A stretch of 37,359 nucleotides of DNA, taken from IMG/VR virus record IMGVR_UViG_2654587746_000004, positions 1 through 37,359 of that record; one strand, given 5' to 3'. The stretch comes from a virus (lineage: Duplodnaviria > Heunggongvirae > Uroviricota > Caudoviricetes). Made by a program: the position numbers and the translations under genes. The notes beneath the pieces are model-generated. The model worked only from the letters and a program-made list of their open reading frames with translations. It was not told the origin of the DNA and did no database searches. Of this stretch, positions 1,403 through 37,359 are shown piece by piece (position 1 is the first letter of the stretch; every line of letters starts with the position of its first letter).

Positions 1403-2545
1403 TCAAGGTGCTTCTCTAACGGATTCAGTTTTAATTGAAGATACATCTGATTTTTTTTGCATTCTACGAGCGATGGCATGCCCTATGGATACTGATGGTT
1501 TTTCAATAAAGTTATAAGATATGATTGATATAATAAAAGTAGCGCAAATCATAGCTAGAAAAACACCAAATCCTTTACTATCCAATACCCCGTACGGTTT
1601 GAGATATAAAACAGCAAGACTGTATACAACCATATGATTAATGTAAAGTGAATAGGATATTTCACCAACATACGTTAGAATTTTATTTCTATATACATCC
1701 CTACACTTAGAAATAAGGACTATTGGGGCTATAATCATAAATGAATAAGCCCCCCATGCTACAATTCCAGGTCCATTCCTTAACCCTAGGCATAAAAAAA
1801 GCAAGGCAATCGCTAATGTAATATTAAGAAATTGAACAACAGGCATTTTATTTATAAGTCTAGAAGGTAGCCTAATGTAGGCCTCTGCAATAATCATCCC
1901 CAAAATAAAGTCATATATTATTGGATTTGATACAAATACCAGATTACGAATAATTCCATCACCAGATGGCGGTTGCGCGATAGGATTTAGAAAAACATCT
2001 CCGTGAAAGTACAGTTGACCAAGAACGCAAATAATGATGAGAAGAAATGATGCGATCGCAGTTCTATATTTATGGCTGATGCATAATGAAAAAAAGAAAA
2101 CCACATAGAACCAAATTTCATACGTTAGTGTCCATGCAGGTATTATTATACTATAACCTGACCATGGCCCTATAAAATTATAGTCAATTGGTATGAGCAA
2201 GTAGCTCTTTATTATTTGTGATGATGTATATATTGCCTCATAGTTGAGGTATATAGCCAGAGTAAGGATTATAAAGTAAACAGGGTACAACCTAAAAAAA
2301 CGCTTAGCAGCAAACACCATTGGCCGGTTTTTTGCCTTATTCATTGAAGAATAAGTAATGATAAATCCACTTATAACAAAGAATATATCAACACCAACCT
2401 CACCTATACCAAAAAGAATGTCGCCCAAGTCCTTTTGGGCATACACTCCATTTAAATATACTCTAAAGTGAAACGCAATGACTAGAAGTACCGCGATCCC
2501 TCTAAGGACTTGAATAGAGTCTAACTTATTTGTTTTTCTTTCCAT
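1403..2545 (-). CDS. Integral-membrane acyltransferase, family 3 (Oac-like O-antigen acetyltransferase; serotype conversion)
   Basis: 380-aa ORF, markedly AT-rich; many hydrophobic segments; N-terminal LRGIAVLLVIAFH...DIFFVISGF motif typical of Acyl_transf_3/Oac; sits between tailspike and int as oac does in Sf6. Confidence 0.8.
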   Translation of the reverse strand: MERKTNKLDSIQVLRGIAVLLVIAFHFRVYLNGVYAQKDLGDILFGIGEVGVDIFFVISGFIITYSSMNKAKNRPMVFAAKRFFRLYPVYFIILTLAIYLNYEAIYTSSQIIKSYLLIPIDYNFIGPWSGYSIIIPAWTLTYEIWFYVVFFFSLCISHKYRTAIASFLLIIICVLGQLYFHGDVFLNPIAQPPSGDGIIRNLVFVSNPIIYDFILGMIIAEAYIRLPSRLINKMPVVQFLNITLAIALLFLCLGLRNGPGIVAWGAYSFMIIAPIVLISKCRDVYRNKILTYVGEISYSLYINHMVVYSLAVLYLKPYGVLDSKGFGVFLAMICATFIISIISYNFIEKPSVSIGHAIARRMQKKSDVSSIKTESVREAP

Positions 2546-2615: not shown

Positions 2616-4739
2616 TTAAAAGTTTCCCTCTGATAAGAAAGAATAGGTTCCTGGCCCACCTGGAATATTGCATGTCCATGCCTTTGGTTGTCCTGAAGCA
2701 GGTGCGCTATTGATAACACGCTCACCTATATCCCAGAAACCGGATGTAGGTACTGACGAAAGATAAAATGTTGTTTTTTCAACTTGCAACGCGTTTGATG
2801 GCATTCCATATGCACATAGAGAAGGTGAGTTTATGAGTACATTTCCTGAACCATAATTTCTTATACCAACATTTATAGCTGTATCAGTTTCGTATATATA
2901 CACACCACAACTAACATAGCTCCATTTCCCATTACCAGCTAAAGGTGCTGTAGAGTCTGTTTGTCCTGCACCATTAATTATAAACATAAGTTTTGACGCT
3001 GATCCCTGGTCATTGACCCACGCACCAAACCATACAAATTTCCCTTTTAGTTCTGGTGATTTGTTGAGGTCTATCGTTCGTCCCCAAACTCTATCTCCTG
3101 TCGTAACTAAGAATGAATAATTACCAGCATAGATGTTTTGAGTTTTTATCAATGTTCCTGTAGTTCCAGATGCCGCAGTCCAGAGCAACATATTTCGATC
3201 AAGATAGTTAGCAGTTAACTCTCTGTTCGCAATATCTATTAAATGAGCAGTGTCAGGGTTTTGTGTCGCCGGGTCATAACTACCAACGTATCCGATGGAG
3301 TTCACTGTGTTGTTGGCAAGATATAGCCTGTCAGTAACTTTGGACGAAAGATTATTGTGGTACATTGCTAATAAATTATTCACTTTCGATGCGTCTAATA
3401 ACTGATTATTTTCAATCGTCAGGTTTTTCGCATAGTTCGTGAAAATAAATCCGTCTTGGTTAGGTAGCGCGCTGGCGTAGCCAATCGCGGTCTGCTGATT
3501 CCCGCGAATAGATACGGTATCATTAATTTTTGAAAGGTCAGGAATTAATGTAAAATTGTTCGCGATAAGGTGGATATCCGCACGTACTGTAATAGACTCA
3601 GGTACACTATACTGGTAACCAATCTCACCGTTGCGTTCCCAATAGTTATCATCAAGGTTAAGGCCTTTAACCCCGTAAGCCAAAAGTCCGTAGAACTTAT
3701 TTTGCTCTATATTGTTGCCATTAACTCTGACGCTCATACCGCCCTCAGCGTAAGCTGGCGTAAGTAAAACTCCACCGGCTCCGTTACCATAGATACGGCT
3801 GTTGATTATATTAATATTATTGCAGTAACCACCAACATTAATACCGTTACCGGCGTTTTGAAACAACCGGCACCCAATGATGTCAATGGAGTAACCGTTA
3901 ACTAATATTGCGTTGTTATTAGTATTAACCACGTCAATATTTTCTATTTTAATGTGGTTGGCTTCAGTAAGACTGATGCCGTTAGCTGCGTAGCCATTTC
4001 CGTCAAGACCAAAGTCCCTGAACTCGCAGAACGTAATTACCCCATCTTGTTGCGTGATTATCGGTGCCGCTGTACCCGTAGAGAAAATTCTGGACTGATA
4101 TGCGCCAGCACCTCGTATCATGGTGACAGTATTCTTAATCGTAATACCAGGGTCAACAATGAACGCCCCCTCTGGTATAACAATCTCAGTTGGCAACGTA
4201 GCATCATCAATAGCCTTCTGAAATGCAGCTTTGTTCTGAGCACCGGTGTTTCCCTCAGCAAACCCGTAGTCTGTAAGCGTCCTCAGGTCGATAGTTAGCT
4301 TTTTTGAGAGAATGGTCGATGTGCTATCGACAAACTGTGGGTTATGCATGACTAGAGAGTCGCCAAGTGAGTGATCTTCGCTCAGGAGATTGCCCTTAAA
4401 CTGATCTGGATCATACTTTAGCACATTCGGAAAATAGAACTGCTGCGCACCGTATGCATCGTATACAGCCATAGAATGGCCTTGCACAGTTACGAACTTG
4501 GCAATCTGTCCGTTATATACCGGATACCCGCCAGCGTTAATGATGATTGGCTGTGCAACAGGAACGTGAGAACCGTCTTCATTCTCTACATAAACCTGAA
4601 TCTGGTTTTCAGGGTTTACCGGGTCAGTGTCAATTTTACCGATATAAATTTTACCATTGGCTACGGCTTTAAAAGAACGAGCCATAGTGAAGAGTTGCGA
4701 AGGCATCGATACGATCACATTGGCTGTAATGTCTGTCAT
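2616..4739 (-). CDS. Tailspike protein (P22 gp9-like head-binding domain, divergent beta-helix receptor-binding domain)
   Basis: 707-aa ORF; first ~115 aa ([40 protein letters not shown]...) match the remembered P22-family tailspike head-binding domain; remainder is Gly/Asn-rich repetitive beta-helix-like sequence. Confidence 0.9.
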
Positions 4740-31834: not shown

Positions 31835-31914
31835 AGACTCGCTCCGAAATTAAAGAACACTTAAATTATCCACTAAAGGAATCTTAAGTCAAGTTTATTT
31901 AAGATGTCTTAACT
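31835..31914. promoter_or_regulatory. OR operator cluster with divergent pR/pRM promoters
   Basis: Three P22-type sites with AnTTAAG...CTTAAnT symmetry (ATTAAAGAACACTTAAAT; CACTAAAGGAATCTTAAGT; TATTTAAGATGTCTTAACT) between cro and c2 starts. Confidence 0.8.
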
Positions 31915-32565
31915 ATGAAAACTCAATTGATGGGAGAGCGCATTCGCGCTCGGAGAAAAGAACTCAAGATCAGGCAGGCCGCACTTGGAAAGATGGTCGG
32001 CGTGTCTAATGTTGCCATATCTCAGTGGGAACGCTCTGAGACAGAGCCAAATGGAGAGAATCTTCTCGCCCTGGCTAATGCGTTGAAGTGTTCCCCTGAC
32101 TATCTGATGAAAGGAGAGGAAAGTCTTTCAAACATTGCCTATCACAGTAGGCATGATCCAAGAGGGTCATACCCTCTGATTAGCTGGGTGAGCGCAGGAT
32201 GCTGGATGGAAGCTGTAGAACCATATCATAAGCGTGCAATAGATAACTGGTACGATACAACCGTAGACTGTTCAGAAGATTCGTTTTGGTTGGACGTGAA
32301 GGGAGACTCAATGACGGCTCCGGCCGGTCTCAGTATCCCTGAAGGAATGATAATACTCGTCGATCCTGAAGTAGAGCCGCGTAACGGGAAACTGGTAGTT
32401 GCAAAGCTCGAAGGAGAAAACGAGGCAACTTTCAAGAAGTTAGTTATTGATGCAGGCAGGAAGTTTCTAAAACCACTTAACCCACAATATCCGATGATCG
32501 AGATCAACGGAAACTGCAAAATCATCGGCGTAGTTGTCGATGCAAAACTAGCAAACCTTCCATAA
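31915..32565 (+). CDS. c2: Prophage repressor C2 (P22-type CI; LexA-like autocleavage domain)
   Basis: 216-aa product MKTQLMGERIRARRKELKIRQAALGKMVGVSNVAISQWERSETEPNGENLLALANAL... near-identical to remembered P22 C2; C-terminal S24 peptidase-like domain. Confidence 0.95.
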   Translation: MKTQLMGERIRARRKELKIRQAALGKMVGVSNVAISQWERSETEPNGENLLALANALKCSPDYLMKGEESLSNIAYHSRHDPRGSYPLISWVSAGCWMEAVEPYHKRAIDNWYDTTVDCSEDSFWLDVKGDSMTAPAGLSIPEGMIILVDPEVEPRNGKLVVAKLEGENEATFKKLVIDAGRKFLKPLNPQYPMIEINGNCKIIGVVVDAKLANLP

Positions 32566-32610: not shown

Positions 32611-32690
32611 AACTTAAATTACGAAAGAAAATTTAAGTTTTCTTCAAAAATACTCTTGACCATTAATTAAAGAGATCTTAAATTTAAGCC
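32611..32690 (+). promoter_or_regulatory. OL operators and pL promoter
   Basis: P22-type operator half-sites (ACTTAAAT.../...ATTTAAGT; GATCTTAAATTTAAG) overlapping TTGACC - 17 nt - TAAATT (32656-32684), oriented toward N. Confidence 0.75.
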
Positions 32691-33273: not shown

Positions 33274-33457
33274 TAAAAATCAATGGTGTGGACAATTCAA
33301 GCGATGCAATGGATGCAAGCTTCAATCGGAATGCATGGTTAAGCCTGAAGAAATGTTCCCTGTAATGGAGGATGGGAAATATGTCGATAAATGGGCAATA
33401 CGAACGACGGCAATGATTGCCAGAGAACTTGGTAAACAGAACAACAAGGCTGCCTGA
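33257..33457 (+). CDS. ral: Restriction alleviation protein Ral
   Basis: 66-aa product MTTTIDKNQWCGQFKRCNGCKLQSECMVKPEEMFPVMEDGKYVDKWAIRTTAMIARELGKQNNKAA matches remembered lambda Ral. Confidence 0.9.
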   Translation: MTTTIDKNQWCGQFKRCNGCKLQSECMVKPEEMFPVMEDGKYVDKWAIRTTAMIARELGKQNNKAA

Positions 33458-33593
33458 TGGTGGCCTTTATTTTTGGCATAAACAACAGAATAAACACTGC
33501 ACTGTGTATTCATTCCAACGAGTGAATACACGGAGCAATGTCGCTCGTAACTAAACAGGAGCCGACTTGTTCTGATTATTGGAAATCTTCTTT

Positions 33594-33620
33594 GCCCTCC
33601 AGTGTGAGGGCTTTTTTATA
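33594..33620 (+). terminator. tL1-like intrinsic terminator in the pL operon
   Basis: GCCCTC-CAGTGT-GAGGGC followed by TTTTTTATAT, upstream of the cIII-like gene. Confidence 0.65.
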
Positions 33621-33683
33621 TGCATACCAATAACGCTTCAATTGAGGCGTTTTCGTTATGCAATCAAACAGAAGGAGCATCCT

Positions 33684-33854
33684 ATGCAACAGTTCGCTAT
33701 TGCAGGGGCGGCATCGGTTCGCCCTTTCAACCCGATTTTATCAGTACAGCATTCACGAAAAAACATTTTAACCGGAGCAGACTTTAAACAACCAAGAATG
33801 AAGAGTTTGCTCGAAAAGCTTTGGGATATTTTGAAACAACAAGGCCGTCCATGA
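33684..33854 (+). CDS. CIII-like protein (putative FtsH inhibitor)
   Basis: 56-aa product from ATG with AAGGAG Shine-Dalgarno; MQQFAIAG... and ...KSLLEKLWDILKQQGRP resemble the lambda CIII core (ESLLERITRKL..RLIDILNQPG); moderate similarity only. Confidence 0.55.
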   Translation: MQQFAIAGAASVRPFNPILSVQHSRKNILTGADFKQPRMKSLLEKLWDILKQQGRP

Positions 33855-34021
33855 GTTTTACAGATAAATGGTCAGACGAAGAATTCATTCGTCAGATGAA
33901 AGATTTAATCGGTAACGAAGGAGATATTCATGTCACTTGCAACCACAGTGAAGGAGAGCAAGTTACAGAGACGCATGTACACGCAGCAGGCGTTAATGTA
34001 TCGCCAGAAGGGAGATCGTGA
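33851..34021 (+). CDS. Small hypothetical protein (kil/arf position)
   Basis: 56-aa ORF MSFTDKWSDEEFIRQMKDLIGNEGDIHV...; ATG overlaps cIII-like stop (ATGA). Confidence 0.45.
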   Translation: MSFTDKWSDEEFIRQMKDLIGNEGDIHVTCNHSEGEQVTETHVHAAGVNVSPEGRS

Positions 34022-34110
34022 AGGTGTTCGCGTATTTTTAAATGCGGCAAAGACTGAAGTATTAAATCAGCGTTATTTACTTGGGCCGTGTCCATTCTGA
34101 GAACAATCAT

Positions 34111-35426: not shown

Positions 35427-35594
35427 ATGAGAGGACTTGCATACAATCCCGGCATTCTTCCGGCAGAAATGATTATTCGCCAACGCGTAAAGCCAATGCC
35501 ATCGAGAGAGGAATTGCTTAAGAGAAATAGTTTCGGTTCTGTTAATGACAACAAATATCTGAATGCGATGTGGCGTAAAGGAGGCAAGCAGTGA
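35427..35594 (+). CDS. Small hypothetical protein (possibly Abc1-position gene)
   Basis: 55-aa product [31 protein letters not shown]... with GAGGAA Shine-Dalgarno 6 nt upstream; start chosen by RBS within the longer track ORF. Confidence 0.45.
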
Positions 35595-35890
35595 GTGTCA
35601 ATCTTATTGATAAACGTCGACGTGGGCAACAAATACCACCTGTAGGAATTCCGAATCACACATGGTTTTGCGTACTTGATATCGATGGTATGGATTCGTT
35701 GGTTGACACTCGTCATTACTGCGATACCGCAACAGCTACTCCGGCGAAAGCAAAGAAAATGGCTGCTCTGATAGAAAACTGGACTCCACCTGATGGTTGG
35801 TGCAATGGGAATGATCGAAATTGGCATGAAAAAATGAAGGGCTATATCTGCGATTTCTTACGTAAATGCAACGGCTTCAGGGTGATGTGA
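35591..35890 (+). CDS. Hypothetical Cys-containing protein
   Basis: 99-aa ORF with GTG start preceded by AAGGAGG; overlaps previous stop; several Cys/Trp (..[19 protein letters not shown]..). Confidence 0.5.
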
Positions 35891-35891
35891 T

Positions 35892-36449
35892 ATGACCAAA
35901 ATTAACTATCAGGCACTGCGTGAAGCGGCAGAAAAAGCAACGTGTGGTGTGTGGTCGCTCGAATATGGAGAGGAGAGATTTGATGGTGATGATGCACTAA
36001 TTCATCGCGAGGCTGCTGGATATATTCCCATTTGCAGAATTGAAGGAGCGCATCCTGAAAGCGGTTTCGATGAAGATTTCCAAATGGAACAGCAGGCCAA
36101 TGCTGAATTCATCGCCGCAGCCAATCCGGCTACCGTCTTGGCGCTGCTGGATGAGCTGGAAACAGCAAAAAAGCGCATAGCAGAACTGAAAGCCGAACCT
36201 GTAAGCCAAACTTACAAGTTGAACCAGCTATCGGGCAACTCTCCGGTAACTCAGGATAGTTGGATAAGCTGTAGTGAGCGGATTCCCGCGCAAGATGATT
36301 GGGTTTTAATTTATTCAAAGCACGGCGAGTATATGGCAGGACAGGTACAAGGGGAATACGTGGAGTTGAGCGACGGCACTTTATCGTGGTTAGGGAACGC
36401 CTTGTTCTGGATGCCGCTACCAGAACCGCCTCGATTAAAGGAGCTATAA
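35892..36449 (+). CDS. Ead/Ea22-like protein with C-terminal DUF551 domain
   Basis: 185-aa ORF; N-terminal ..ALREAAEKATCGVW..ANAEFIAAANPATVLALLDELE.. and C-terminal ..WISCSERIPAQDDWVLIY.. pattern recalled from lambdoid ea-region proteins. Confidence 0.7.
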   Translation: MTKINYQALREAAEKATCGVWSLEYGEERFDGDDALIHREAAGYIPICRIEGAHPESGFDEDFQMEQQANAEFIAAANPATVLALLDELETAKKRIAELKAEPVSQTYKLNQLSGNSPVTQDSWISCSERIPAQDDWVLIYSKHGEYMAGQVQGEYVELSDGTLSWLGNALFWMPLPEPPRLKEL

Positions 36450-36563
36450 TAGTGAACTATTATATCTATTTGTATTAAAAGAGTTTTTATAAAATAAATC
36501 TTCCAAAGCATGTAAAAACACTGTTAATCTTAACGTGTGTGAAACGTGAAGAGAGGTGTTGAA

Positions 36564-36845
36564 ATGAGCATTCATGATTTGTGTGAAGATCAAGAGCAAT
36601 GGGCTATGCAGACCCTTATGGGATCAGGAGTTCTTGCAAGGTGCAGAATCCATAACGATGTAATTTTAGACAGCGGAAATGATGCTTCTTCTGCTTATAA
36701 ATTAGGAACTTACTTATATCAAAAAGATAATAGCTGCAACTTATTCAATACTCTTACTGAAGCCCGCGACGCAATAAAGGATGCATATGAATCGTATTGT
36801 GGGATTGATGATTGCCCACAATGCTCAAAATACATTGACGATTAA
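36564..36845 (+). CDS. Moron-encoded hypothetical protein (AT-rich, own promoter and terminators)
   Basis: 93-aa product MSIHDLCEDQEQWAMQTLMGSGV...CGIDDCPQCSKYIDD from ATG with GAGAGG Shine-Dalgarno; AT-rich promoter-like sequence upstream; low GC. Confidence 0.55.
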   Translation: MSIHDLCEDQEQWAMQTLMGSGVLARCRIHNDVILDSGNDASSAYKLGTYLYQKDNSCNLFNTLTEARDAIKDAYESYCGIDDCPQCSKYIDD

Positions 36846-36864
36846 TAATATGAACAAGTAACTA

Positions 36865-36920
36865 TCCTCGCACTCGCGGGGATTTCTTTTATCTGAACTC
36901 GCTACGGCGAGTTTTGTTTT
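36865..36920 (+). terminator. Tandem intrinsic terminators after the moron gene
   Basis: CCTCGC-ACTC-GCGGGG + ATTTCTTTT, then AACTCGC-TACG-GCGAGTT + TTGTTTT. Confidence 0.65.
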
Positions 36921-36933
36921 ATGGAGATGATAA

Positions 36934-37101
36934 ATGCACTTCCGAGTCACAGGTGAATGGAATGGAGAACCATTCAACAGAGTTATCGAAGCAGAGAACA
37001 TCAATGACTGCTATGACCACTGGATGATATGGGCGCAGATAGCACATGCAGACGTAACCAATATTCGAATTGAAGAACTGAAAGAACACCAAGCCGCCTG
37101 A
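36934..37101 (+). CDS. Small hypothetical protein
   Basis: 55-aa hand-translated MHFRVTGEWNGEPFNRVIEAENINDCYDHWMIWAQIAHADVTNIRIEELKEHQAA; GGAGA Shine-Dalgarno upstream; stop lies in the loop of a terminator hairpin. Confidence 0.5.
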   Translation: MHFRVTGEWNGEPFNRVIEAENINDCYDHWMIWAQIAHADVTNIRIEELKEHQAA

Positions 37102-37116
37102 TGGCGGTTTTTTATT
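37093..37116 (+). terminator. Rho-independent terminator upstream of xis
   Basis: CCGCC-TGAT-GGCGG followed by TTTTTTATT. Confidence 0.7.
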
Positions 37117-37123
37117 GCCTGAT

Positions 37124-37139
37124 TTGCAGGTTCGATTCC
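37124..37139. other. tRNA T-arm-like 16-mer; candidate attP core fragment
   Basis: TTGCAGGTTCGATTCC matches the T-stem/loop of an Arg tRNA (argW as remembered) but no complete cloverleaf or 3' acceptor follows; lies just upstream of the xis-int operon. Confidence 0.2.
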
Positions 37140-37158
37140 ATATTCGGAGATAGCACTC

Positions 37159-37359
37159 ATGCAACACGAACTACAGCCTGATTCACTGGTTGATTTGAAA
37201 TTCATCATGGCTGATACTGGCTTTGGTAAAACCTTCATCTATGACCGGATTAAGTCCGGCGACCTGCCTAAAGCCAAAGTTATCCACGGGCGAGCAAGAT
37301 GGTTATATCGTGACCATTGTGAATTCAAAAATAAGCTCTTAAGCCGCGCCAATGGGTAA
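37159..37359 (+). CDS. xis: AlpA-family excisionase / transcriptional regulator
   Basis: 66-aa product ..LVDLKFIMADTGFGKTFIYDRIKSGDLPKAKVIHGRARWLYRDHCEF.. typical of AlpA/Xis winged-helix proteins; directly precedes int across the window junction. Confidence 0.8.
   Translation: MQHELQPDSLVDLKFIMADTGFGKTFIYDRIKSGDLPKAKVIHGRARWLYRDHCEFKNKLLSRANG

Follow-up and report, generated by a model that had tools for sequence, protein, structure and literature searches.

Does the low-GC gene that stands just ahead of the excisionase gene in a P22-like prophage form a transcription unit of its own, or does it belong to the operon in which it is embedded? The question arises at positions 36450–37158 of the virus record IMGVR_UViG_2654587746_000004, which was analyzed over its full length of 37,359 nt (the window). 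A moron of the lambdoid phages, in the Juhala/Hendrix concept, is a unit of deviant guanine-plus-cytosine (GC) content that comprises a promoter, a gene and a terminator and has been inserted between two other genes. A sequence-only reading of the locus had seen one here: an AT-rich promoter-like region, a gene for 93 amino acids and a double terminator, with a second small gene behind them. The two genes are homologues of ea8.5 and orf55 of phage lambda, and the region is very probably the distal end of the exo-xis ('ea') accessory region of an early leftward operon of the pL type. What endures of the moron description is the accessory low-GC cargo, horizontally exchanged in a slot of variable content close to the integration module and ending at strong terminator-like hairpins. 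The autonomy falls away, since no promoter beyond chance was found and the hairpins are not private to the gene but are common to 316 phage records.

The identity of the first gene is carried by its protein. The ea8.5 homologue (36564–36845, + strand) is preceded by a GAGG ribosome-binding site at 36553–36556, 7 nt upstream, and encodes 93 amino acids with the CPQC that had been read near the C-terminus (DDCPQCSKYIDD). The protein matches Pfam PF20735 (Bacteriophage lambda ea8.5-related domain) with 58.7 bits against a cutoff of 27, and the match is full-length, residues 8–93 covering profile positions 1–90 of 90; it also matches phrog_6325. All 93 of its 93 residues are identical to residues 9–101 of chain A of PDB 2M7A, reportedly a nuclear magnetic resonance structure of an Ea8.5 prophage homologue from Kwan et al. 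in 2013 (Biochemistry 52:3612). Lambda Ea8.5 also has 93 amino acids, lies in the same slot between ea22 and orf55/xis, has a similar gene GC (38–39%) and uses the same four zinc ligands, although the window allele is only 41% identical to it over the full length. A word-indexed homologue search gave near-identical proteins only; an exhaustive HMMER search revealed the wider family, with 89 clusters when grouped at 50% identity. Aligning 67 full-length members leaves C27, H30, C84 and C87 as the sole invariant columns. These four residues are the Cys-His-Cys-Cys zinc ligands, with CPQC as half of the site, and the protein is an Ea8.5-family homeodomain-like/zinc-finger hybrid whose three-helix core is clamped by one zinc ion.

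The second gene, orf55 (36934–37101, + strand), encodes a small beta-beta-alpha-beta protein of 55 amino acids that is identical at 55 of 55 residues to lambda lambdap35 (Orf55, NP_597778; phrog_676, E 6.6e-40). Its DNA is about 97% identical to that of lambda, the flanking hairpins are the same, and its TGA stop codon lies within the loop of a third hairpin (37091–37110), so that the description of a 55-amino-acid gene ending in a third terminator was accurate. The statement that neither protein matches a recognized family does not hold: the first is Ea8.5 (PF20735, 2M7A) and the second is lambda Orf55 (phrog_676). Genes, structure and all three predicted terminators are already known from the lambda exo-xis literature, and no new unit is added here.

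The surroundings of the two genes point to the same place. With int at one end and xis at the other, the window is an integrated HK620/Sf6-type prophage; it is P22-like (Lederbergvirus-type), a podovirus type in contrast to the lambda-type siphovirus. On the + strand, a pL-like promoter (TTGACC-17-TAAATT at 32656; 15.0 bits by position weight matrix, PWM) is followed by genes for an ERF recombinase, an Abc2 anti-RecBCD protein, a DUF7739 protein, an Ea22/DUF551 protein, Ea8.5, Orf55 and Xis. The Ea22/DUF551 gene (35892–36449, + strand, 185 amino acids) joins an Ead/Ea22-like N-terminal part (PF13935, E 1.9e-23) to a DUF551 C-terminal part (PF04448, E 1.7e-09) and stands at the position of lambda ea22. 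The order Ea22/DUF551, Ea8.5, Orf55, xis is thus the lambda exo-xis order ea22, ea8.5, lambdap35 (orf55), xis, which places the exact 2M7A protein in a lambda-like gene order within an HK620/Sf6-type prophage. In lambda, the exo-xis genes, ea8.5 included, are described as transcribed from pL (PMC8614690; PMC7093339).

The operon also contains hairpins well ahead of the two genes. Four further terminator-like hairpins on the + strand start at 33446, 33594, 33632 and 34017 (stretch 33446–34032); terminators are therefore normal in this operon, and alone they do not delimit separate units. Such internal hairpins are consistent with dependence on antitermination and would presumably be overridden by a phage antiterminator. 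Transcription of ea8.5 and orf55 most likely starts at pL, once the phage has been induced or has infected a cell, and reaches them through antiterminated read-through, by RNA polymerase that an N/gp24-type antiterminator would have made terminator-resistant.

Base composition sets part of the locus apart. The intergenic spacer ahead of ea8.5 (36450–36563, + strand, 114 nt) has 27% GC and ea8.5 has 38%, compared with 45% for the upstream pL-operon genes and 47% for the window; the segment 36450–36845 falls within the lowest 2% of 396-nt windows. The sharp drop that had been noted holds for the spacer and ea8.5 but does not extend to orf55, whose GC of 45% is not reduced. The spacer is unrelated to the 191 nt found in front of ea8.5 in lambda, and its fold is no better than that of shuffled sequences (z = 0.06). 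An Rfam search of 35500–37359 gave no known RNA family and only a chance, sub-threshold microRNA match (20.9 bits against a gathering score of 43).

Homology edges show how this low-GC DNA travels. They bound a mosaic unit at 36407–36863 (+ strand, 36% GC) that consists of the last 14 codons of the DUF551 gene, the spacer and ea8.5. For 47 of 48 IMG/VR prophage loci the left edge is 36407; two E. coli chromosomes have it at 36407 or 36408. Position 36407 is codon 172 of the open reading frame (ORF) 35892–36449, within its last 14 codons (...MPLPEPPRLKEL), and the 3' end of the DUF551 gene has been co-transferred with the cassette downstream. On the right, lambda, phiv205-1 and Sf6 become homologous again at 36859–36864, and across the 48 loci homology ends at 36892–36931 (5 loci), at 37113–37127 (28 loci) or continues through xis (14 loci). 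In phiv205-1, the same slot holds two unrelated genes; in SEN22 and VT2-Sakai, ea8.5 is lacking and the upstream gene directly adjoins the hairpins. Because the edge at 36407 is fixed, the right ends vary, the slot contents are replaced and the gene is absent in relatives, the spacer and ea8.5 are an exchangeable low-GC accessory cassette with the hairpin elements as its joints.

Of 5426 complete E. coli genomes, 111 carry this ea8.5 allele, as do 50 prophage contigs of IMG/VR; it was not found in isolated-phage DNA records; at the protein level, only lambda derivatives carry Ea8.5 among phage records. The prophages that carry the allele differ in their integration module, some using the dsdC site with TorI and others the sbcB site with another integrase. 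Distant Ea8.5-family genes (34–40% identity) lie outside the exo-xis region in loci L059–L061 (2501–2779) and L057 (2501–2794). The gene of L059–L061 is in the nin-type region of a pR operon, between replication genes and RusA/Q-antiterminator genes, and that of L057 adjoins an Ea47-like gene and a DUF4365 gene. In neither of these slots was a promoter-like site found directly upstream or a terminator directly downstream of the Ea8.5 gene. Among other proteins of the family search, P0034 (343 amino acids) combines a phage-integrase catalytic domain with a C-terminal Ea8.5 domain (PF00589 + PF20735) and could be a real fusion or an artefact of gene calling or a frameshift. The giant proteins P0015 and P0083, listed as Ea8.5 homologues, were set aside, having no PF20735 match and being Por-secretion or DUF4470 proteins.

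The downstream end of the cassette is formed by tandem hairpins, as had been described. Hairpin 1 (36864–36883, + strand) has an 8-bp stem and the loop ACUC and is followed by UUCUUUUAU; hairpin 2 (36895–36914, + strand) has an 8-bp stem and a UACG tetraloop and is followed by UUUUGUUUUAU. They start 19 and 50 nt past the ea8.5 stop codon. Hairpin 3 (37091–37110, + strand), with the orf55 stop codon in its loop, is followed by U6. A scan for intrinsic terminators, defined by a GC-rich stem of at least 5 bp, a short loop and a 3' U-tract on the transcribed strand, returned all three, on the coding strand only. Six terminator-like sites were observed in the region against 1.6 ± 1.4 expected from shuffles. 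The segment 36843–36935 folds at −26.5 kcal/mol (z = −3.6), a value that none of 200 shuffles reached, and the segment of hairpin 3 gives z = −2.7. The three are predicted to be intrinsic terminators in the window, as their counterparts t3, t4 and t5 were in lambda (Bloch et al., 2014; PMC4195576 Table 4). The lambda hairpins keep this order and this spacing with respect to ea8.5 and orf55 and differ by 2–3 substitutions; the DNA at 36799–37121, which includes all three hairpins, is 90% identical to lambda.

The first two hairpins belong to a near-invariant junction element (36863–36930, + strand) that also includes a GGAG ribosome-binding site (36923–36926) for the next gene. The corresponding 62-nt linker (hairpin, U-tract, hairpin, U-tract, GGAG) is present in 316 phage records from phages of E. 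coli, Shigella and Salmonella, among them lambda, HK022, Sf6, Stx phages and Salmonella P22-like phages. Its place is always behind the last 'ea' gene and ahead of a small gene, variable in identity, after which xis or int follows. In an alignment of 11 phages, the linker is almost invariant and the genes on either side are variable; 97% of the stem cells stay paired, the rare substitutions are mostly pairing-neutral (A-U/G·U), and compensatory changes are absent. As terminators, the three hairpins would halt unmodified polymerase arriving from upstream, so that it would not run into a cII-activated pI promoter or into xis, nor, from the prophage, into the DNA of the host. They also coincide exactly with module exchange points of lambdoid phages, the 62-nt linker acting as the common joint. 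The linker thereby marks cassette exchange sites across more than 300 lambdoid phage records. The element is not equated with the annotated 'bsq2' of Sf6, a boundary sequence that spans the xis region and not the hairpins. One record, MW057783.1 ('Campylobacter phage CJLB-4', 48,361 bp), carries the lambda ea8.5 allele and the hairpin element at lambda-like coordinates, which points to lambda contamination or to mislabelling of the record.

How much of this element's conservation is owed to transcription is the point on which the strongest competing explanation turns. The hairpin-hairpin-ribosome-binding-site element might chiefly be a recombination joint that serves gene swapping and not primarily a transcription signal, which is possible although the less favored account, and which is compatible with a terminator role. 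The near-invariance of the element in 316 records with unrelated genes on both sides fits that account, as do the homology edges of the 48 loci and six reference phages, which cluster at 36859–36864, 36892–36931 and 37113–37127. The anatomy is nevertheless that of a canonical terminator (GC stem, tetraloop and U-tract, on the coding strand only), and the substitutions mostly preserve pairing in stems that remain paired in 97% of cells. The conservation itself may equally stem from function combined with frequent exchange.

The joint downstream of orf55 differs from that of lambda in leading into an HK620-type pI/xis segment in place of lambda xis. A putative pI-type integration promoter (37114–37152, + strand) and, within it, a putative cII-binding site (TTGCCTGATTTGC; 37115–37127, + strand) were placed by homology to the annotation of HK620 (record L004), where the promoter is at 1561–1599 and the cII protein_bind feature is at 1562–1574. 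Window positions 37054–37359 align with 1501–1806 of that record without gaps at 98.4% identity. Lambda cII sites have the form TTGC-N6-TTGC. The putative site here is TTGC-N5-TTGC, with spacing one base below the lambda form.

A true moron requires more than terminators, and it is on the promoter that the next explanation was weighed. Under it, a weak sigma-70 promoter, or one activated in another way, in the spacer would transcribe ea8.5 alone, possibly in the lysogen, and the tandem hairpins would be dedicated to this transcript; this is unlikely. The upstream region is AT-rich at 27% GC, as had been noted, yet the promoter-like character ascribed to it is not borne out. A consensus scan of 35800–37359 returned 0 sigma-70-like sites, with 3.1 expected by chance. 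The best weak candidate, TTAAAG-17-TATTAT (36435–36463, + strand), scores 9.5 bits by PWM, which is not significant: it ranks 58th of 373,240 positions in the window, lies 5.5 bits under the pL-like site, and has a score that occurs about once per 1.3 kb of strand. For DNA of 27% GC the candidate is unremarkable, and nothing promoter-like upstream of ea8.5 exceeds chance. The segment resembles a moron in its deviant GC (27–38% against 45–49%), its downstream terminator, its presence/absence polymorphism and its position at a module junction. It differs in that a private promoter was not detected and in that the terminators are a shared junction element outside the inserted unit, common to the linker-bearing phages whatever gene precedes them. 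The distant Ea8.5 homologues in other slots, with neither promoter-like site nor terminator adjacent, and the description of lambda ea8.5 as pL-transcribed also speak against a self-contained unit.

Several observations weigh against transcription from pL with shared terminators as the whole account. The spacer is co-inherited with ea8.5 in 47 of the 48 loci. There is the mediocre −35/−10 pair at 36435–36463, and there is a perfect TATAAT at 36445–36450 with a poor −35. In lambda, quantitative PCR found ea8.5/ea22 levels to be uncoupled from those of the orfs ahead of them, and p1, an internal promoter, was predicted in front of orf73 (PMC4195576). Tandem terminators affect only polymerase that has not been antiterminated, and their presence therefore hints at some unmodified transcription upstream. 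The linker is too conserved, and too free of compensatory changes, for covariation to speak either for or against its stems. Read-through from pL remains the preferred source of transcription, and the narrower proposal that the spacer holds a weak promoter active in the repressed prophage, with Ea8.5 made constitutively, is more doubtful still than a moron in general.

What constitutive expression would mean can be gauged from lambda. There, ea8.5 is non-essential by CRISPR interference, with no plaque phenotype (PMC10695390). According to a passage of PMC7093339 that cites Los 2008, ea8.5 in high copy represses paQ and, weakly, pI, both of which are cII-dependent. Yeast two-hybrid partners of the lambda protein are MinE, Ren and Q (PMC8614690). 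These results suggest that lambda Ea8.5 is dispensable and that at high dosage it lowers cII-dependent promoters. If Ea8.5 were made constitutively in the prophage, it could therefore tilt the choice of incoming lambdoid phages against lysogeny, or it could alter host division via MinE, and the conserved tandem terminators would keep the constitutive transcript out of xis. The locus is ordinary and as a discovery of little significance.

A role in defence or anti-defence, which the position beside the integration module had also brought to mind, is improbable for either protein. Orf55 might be a Gp2-like inhibitor of RNA polymerase, or Ea8.5 a superinfection or defence factor, in keeping with the variable slot that they occupy next to the integration module. 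For Orf55 the proposal is a published one: it has been modelled as a T7 Gp2-like inhibitor of host RNA polymerase (Donaldson, 2021; PMC8614690). That analogy appears not to be specific in structural terms; Gp2 is not the top structural match of Orf55 and has no sequence relationship to it, and no PDB chain is matched by the Orf55 sequence. Neither protein matched any of the families of PADLOC-DB v2 at E ≤ 1 or any model of NCBIfam, and the knockdown of lambda ea8.5 left plaques unaffected. Least of all does the C-terminal CPQC mark a thioredoxin-like redox protein: the CxxC is there, but it is invariant jointly with C27 and H30 and is therefore a pair of metal ligands, which rules out a redox motif, the identical protein in 2M7A is a zinc-finger hybrid, the fold is helical and no thioredoxin Pfam family matches, so that this idea is effectively refuted.

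The ends of the prophage bear on one further point, the placement of the segment just before xis-int. The xis gene (37159–37359, + strand) does follow orf55; it encodes an excisionase of the hkaC/TorI type with 66 amino acids (phrog_66; relatives are annotated as TorI or excisionase) and closes the window, which stops at the xis stop codon, on the attR side of the prophage. The gene for the tyrosine integrase, int (1–1158), stands at the window start, which is the other prophage end. The reference records of HK620 and Sf6 have attP flanked by xis and int, and in phiv205-1, attR is 74 bp past the xis homologue. With int and xis at opposite ends of an integrated prophage, the phrase holds for the circular form only. 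Ahead of the pL-like promoter are a C2-type repressor gene (31915–32565) with its terminator and a pR-like site at 31892 on the minus strand (PWM about 12.4 bits).

Elsewhere in the window, the largest low-GC block (1250–2610, 33–36% GC) contains a gene of the acyltransferase-3 family with 380 amino acids (ORF 1403–2545, minus strand), which sits between int and an ORF of 707 amino acids (2616–4739). Just upstream of its start is a promoter-like sequence, TTGAAA-17-TATGTT, at 2603 on the minus strand, which with 14.6 bits is among the strongest in the window. This acyltransferase-3 gene fits a promoter-bearing conversion gene, or moron, better than ea8.5 does.

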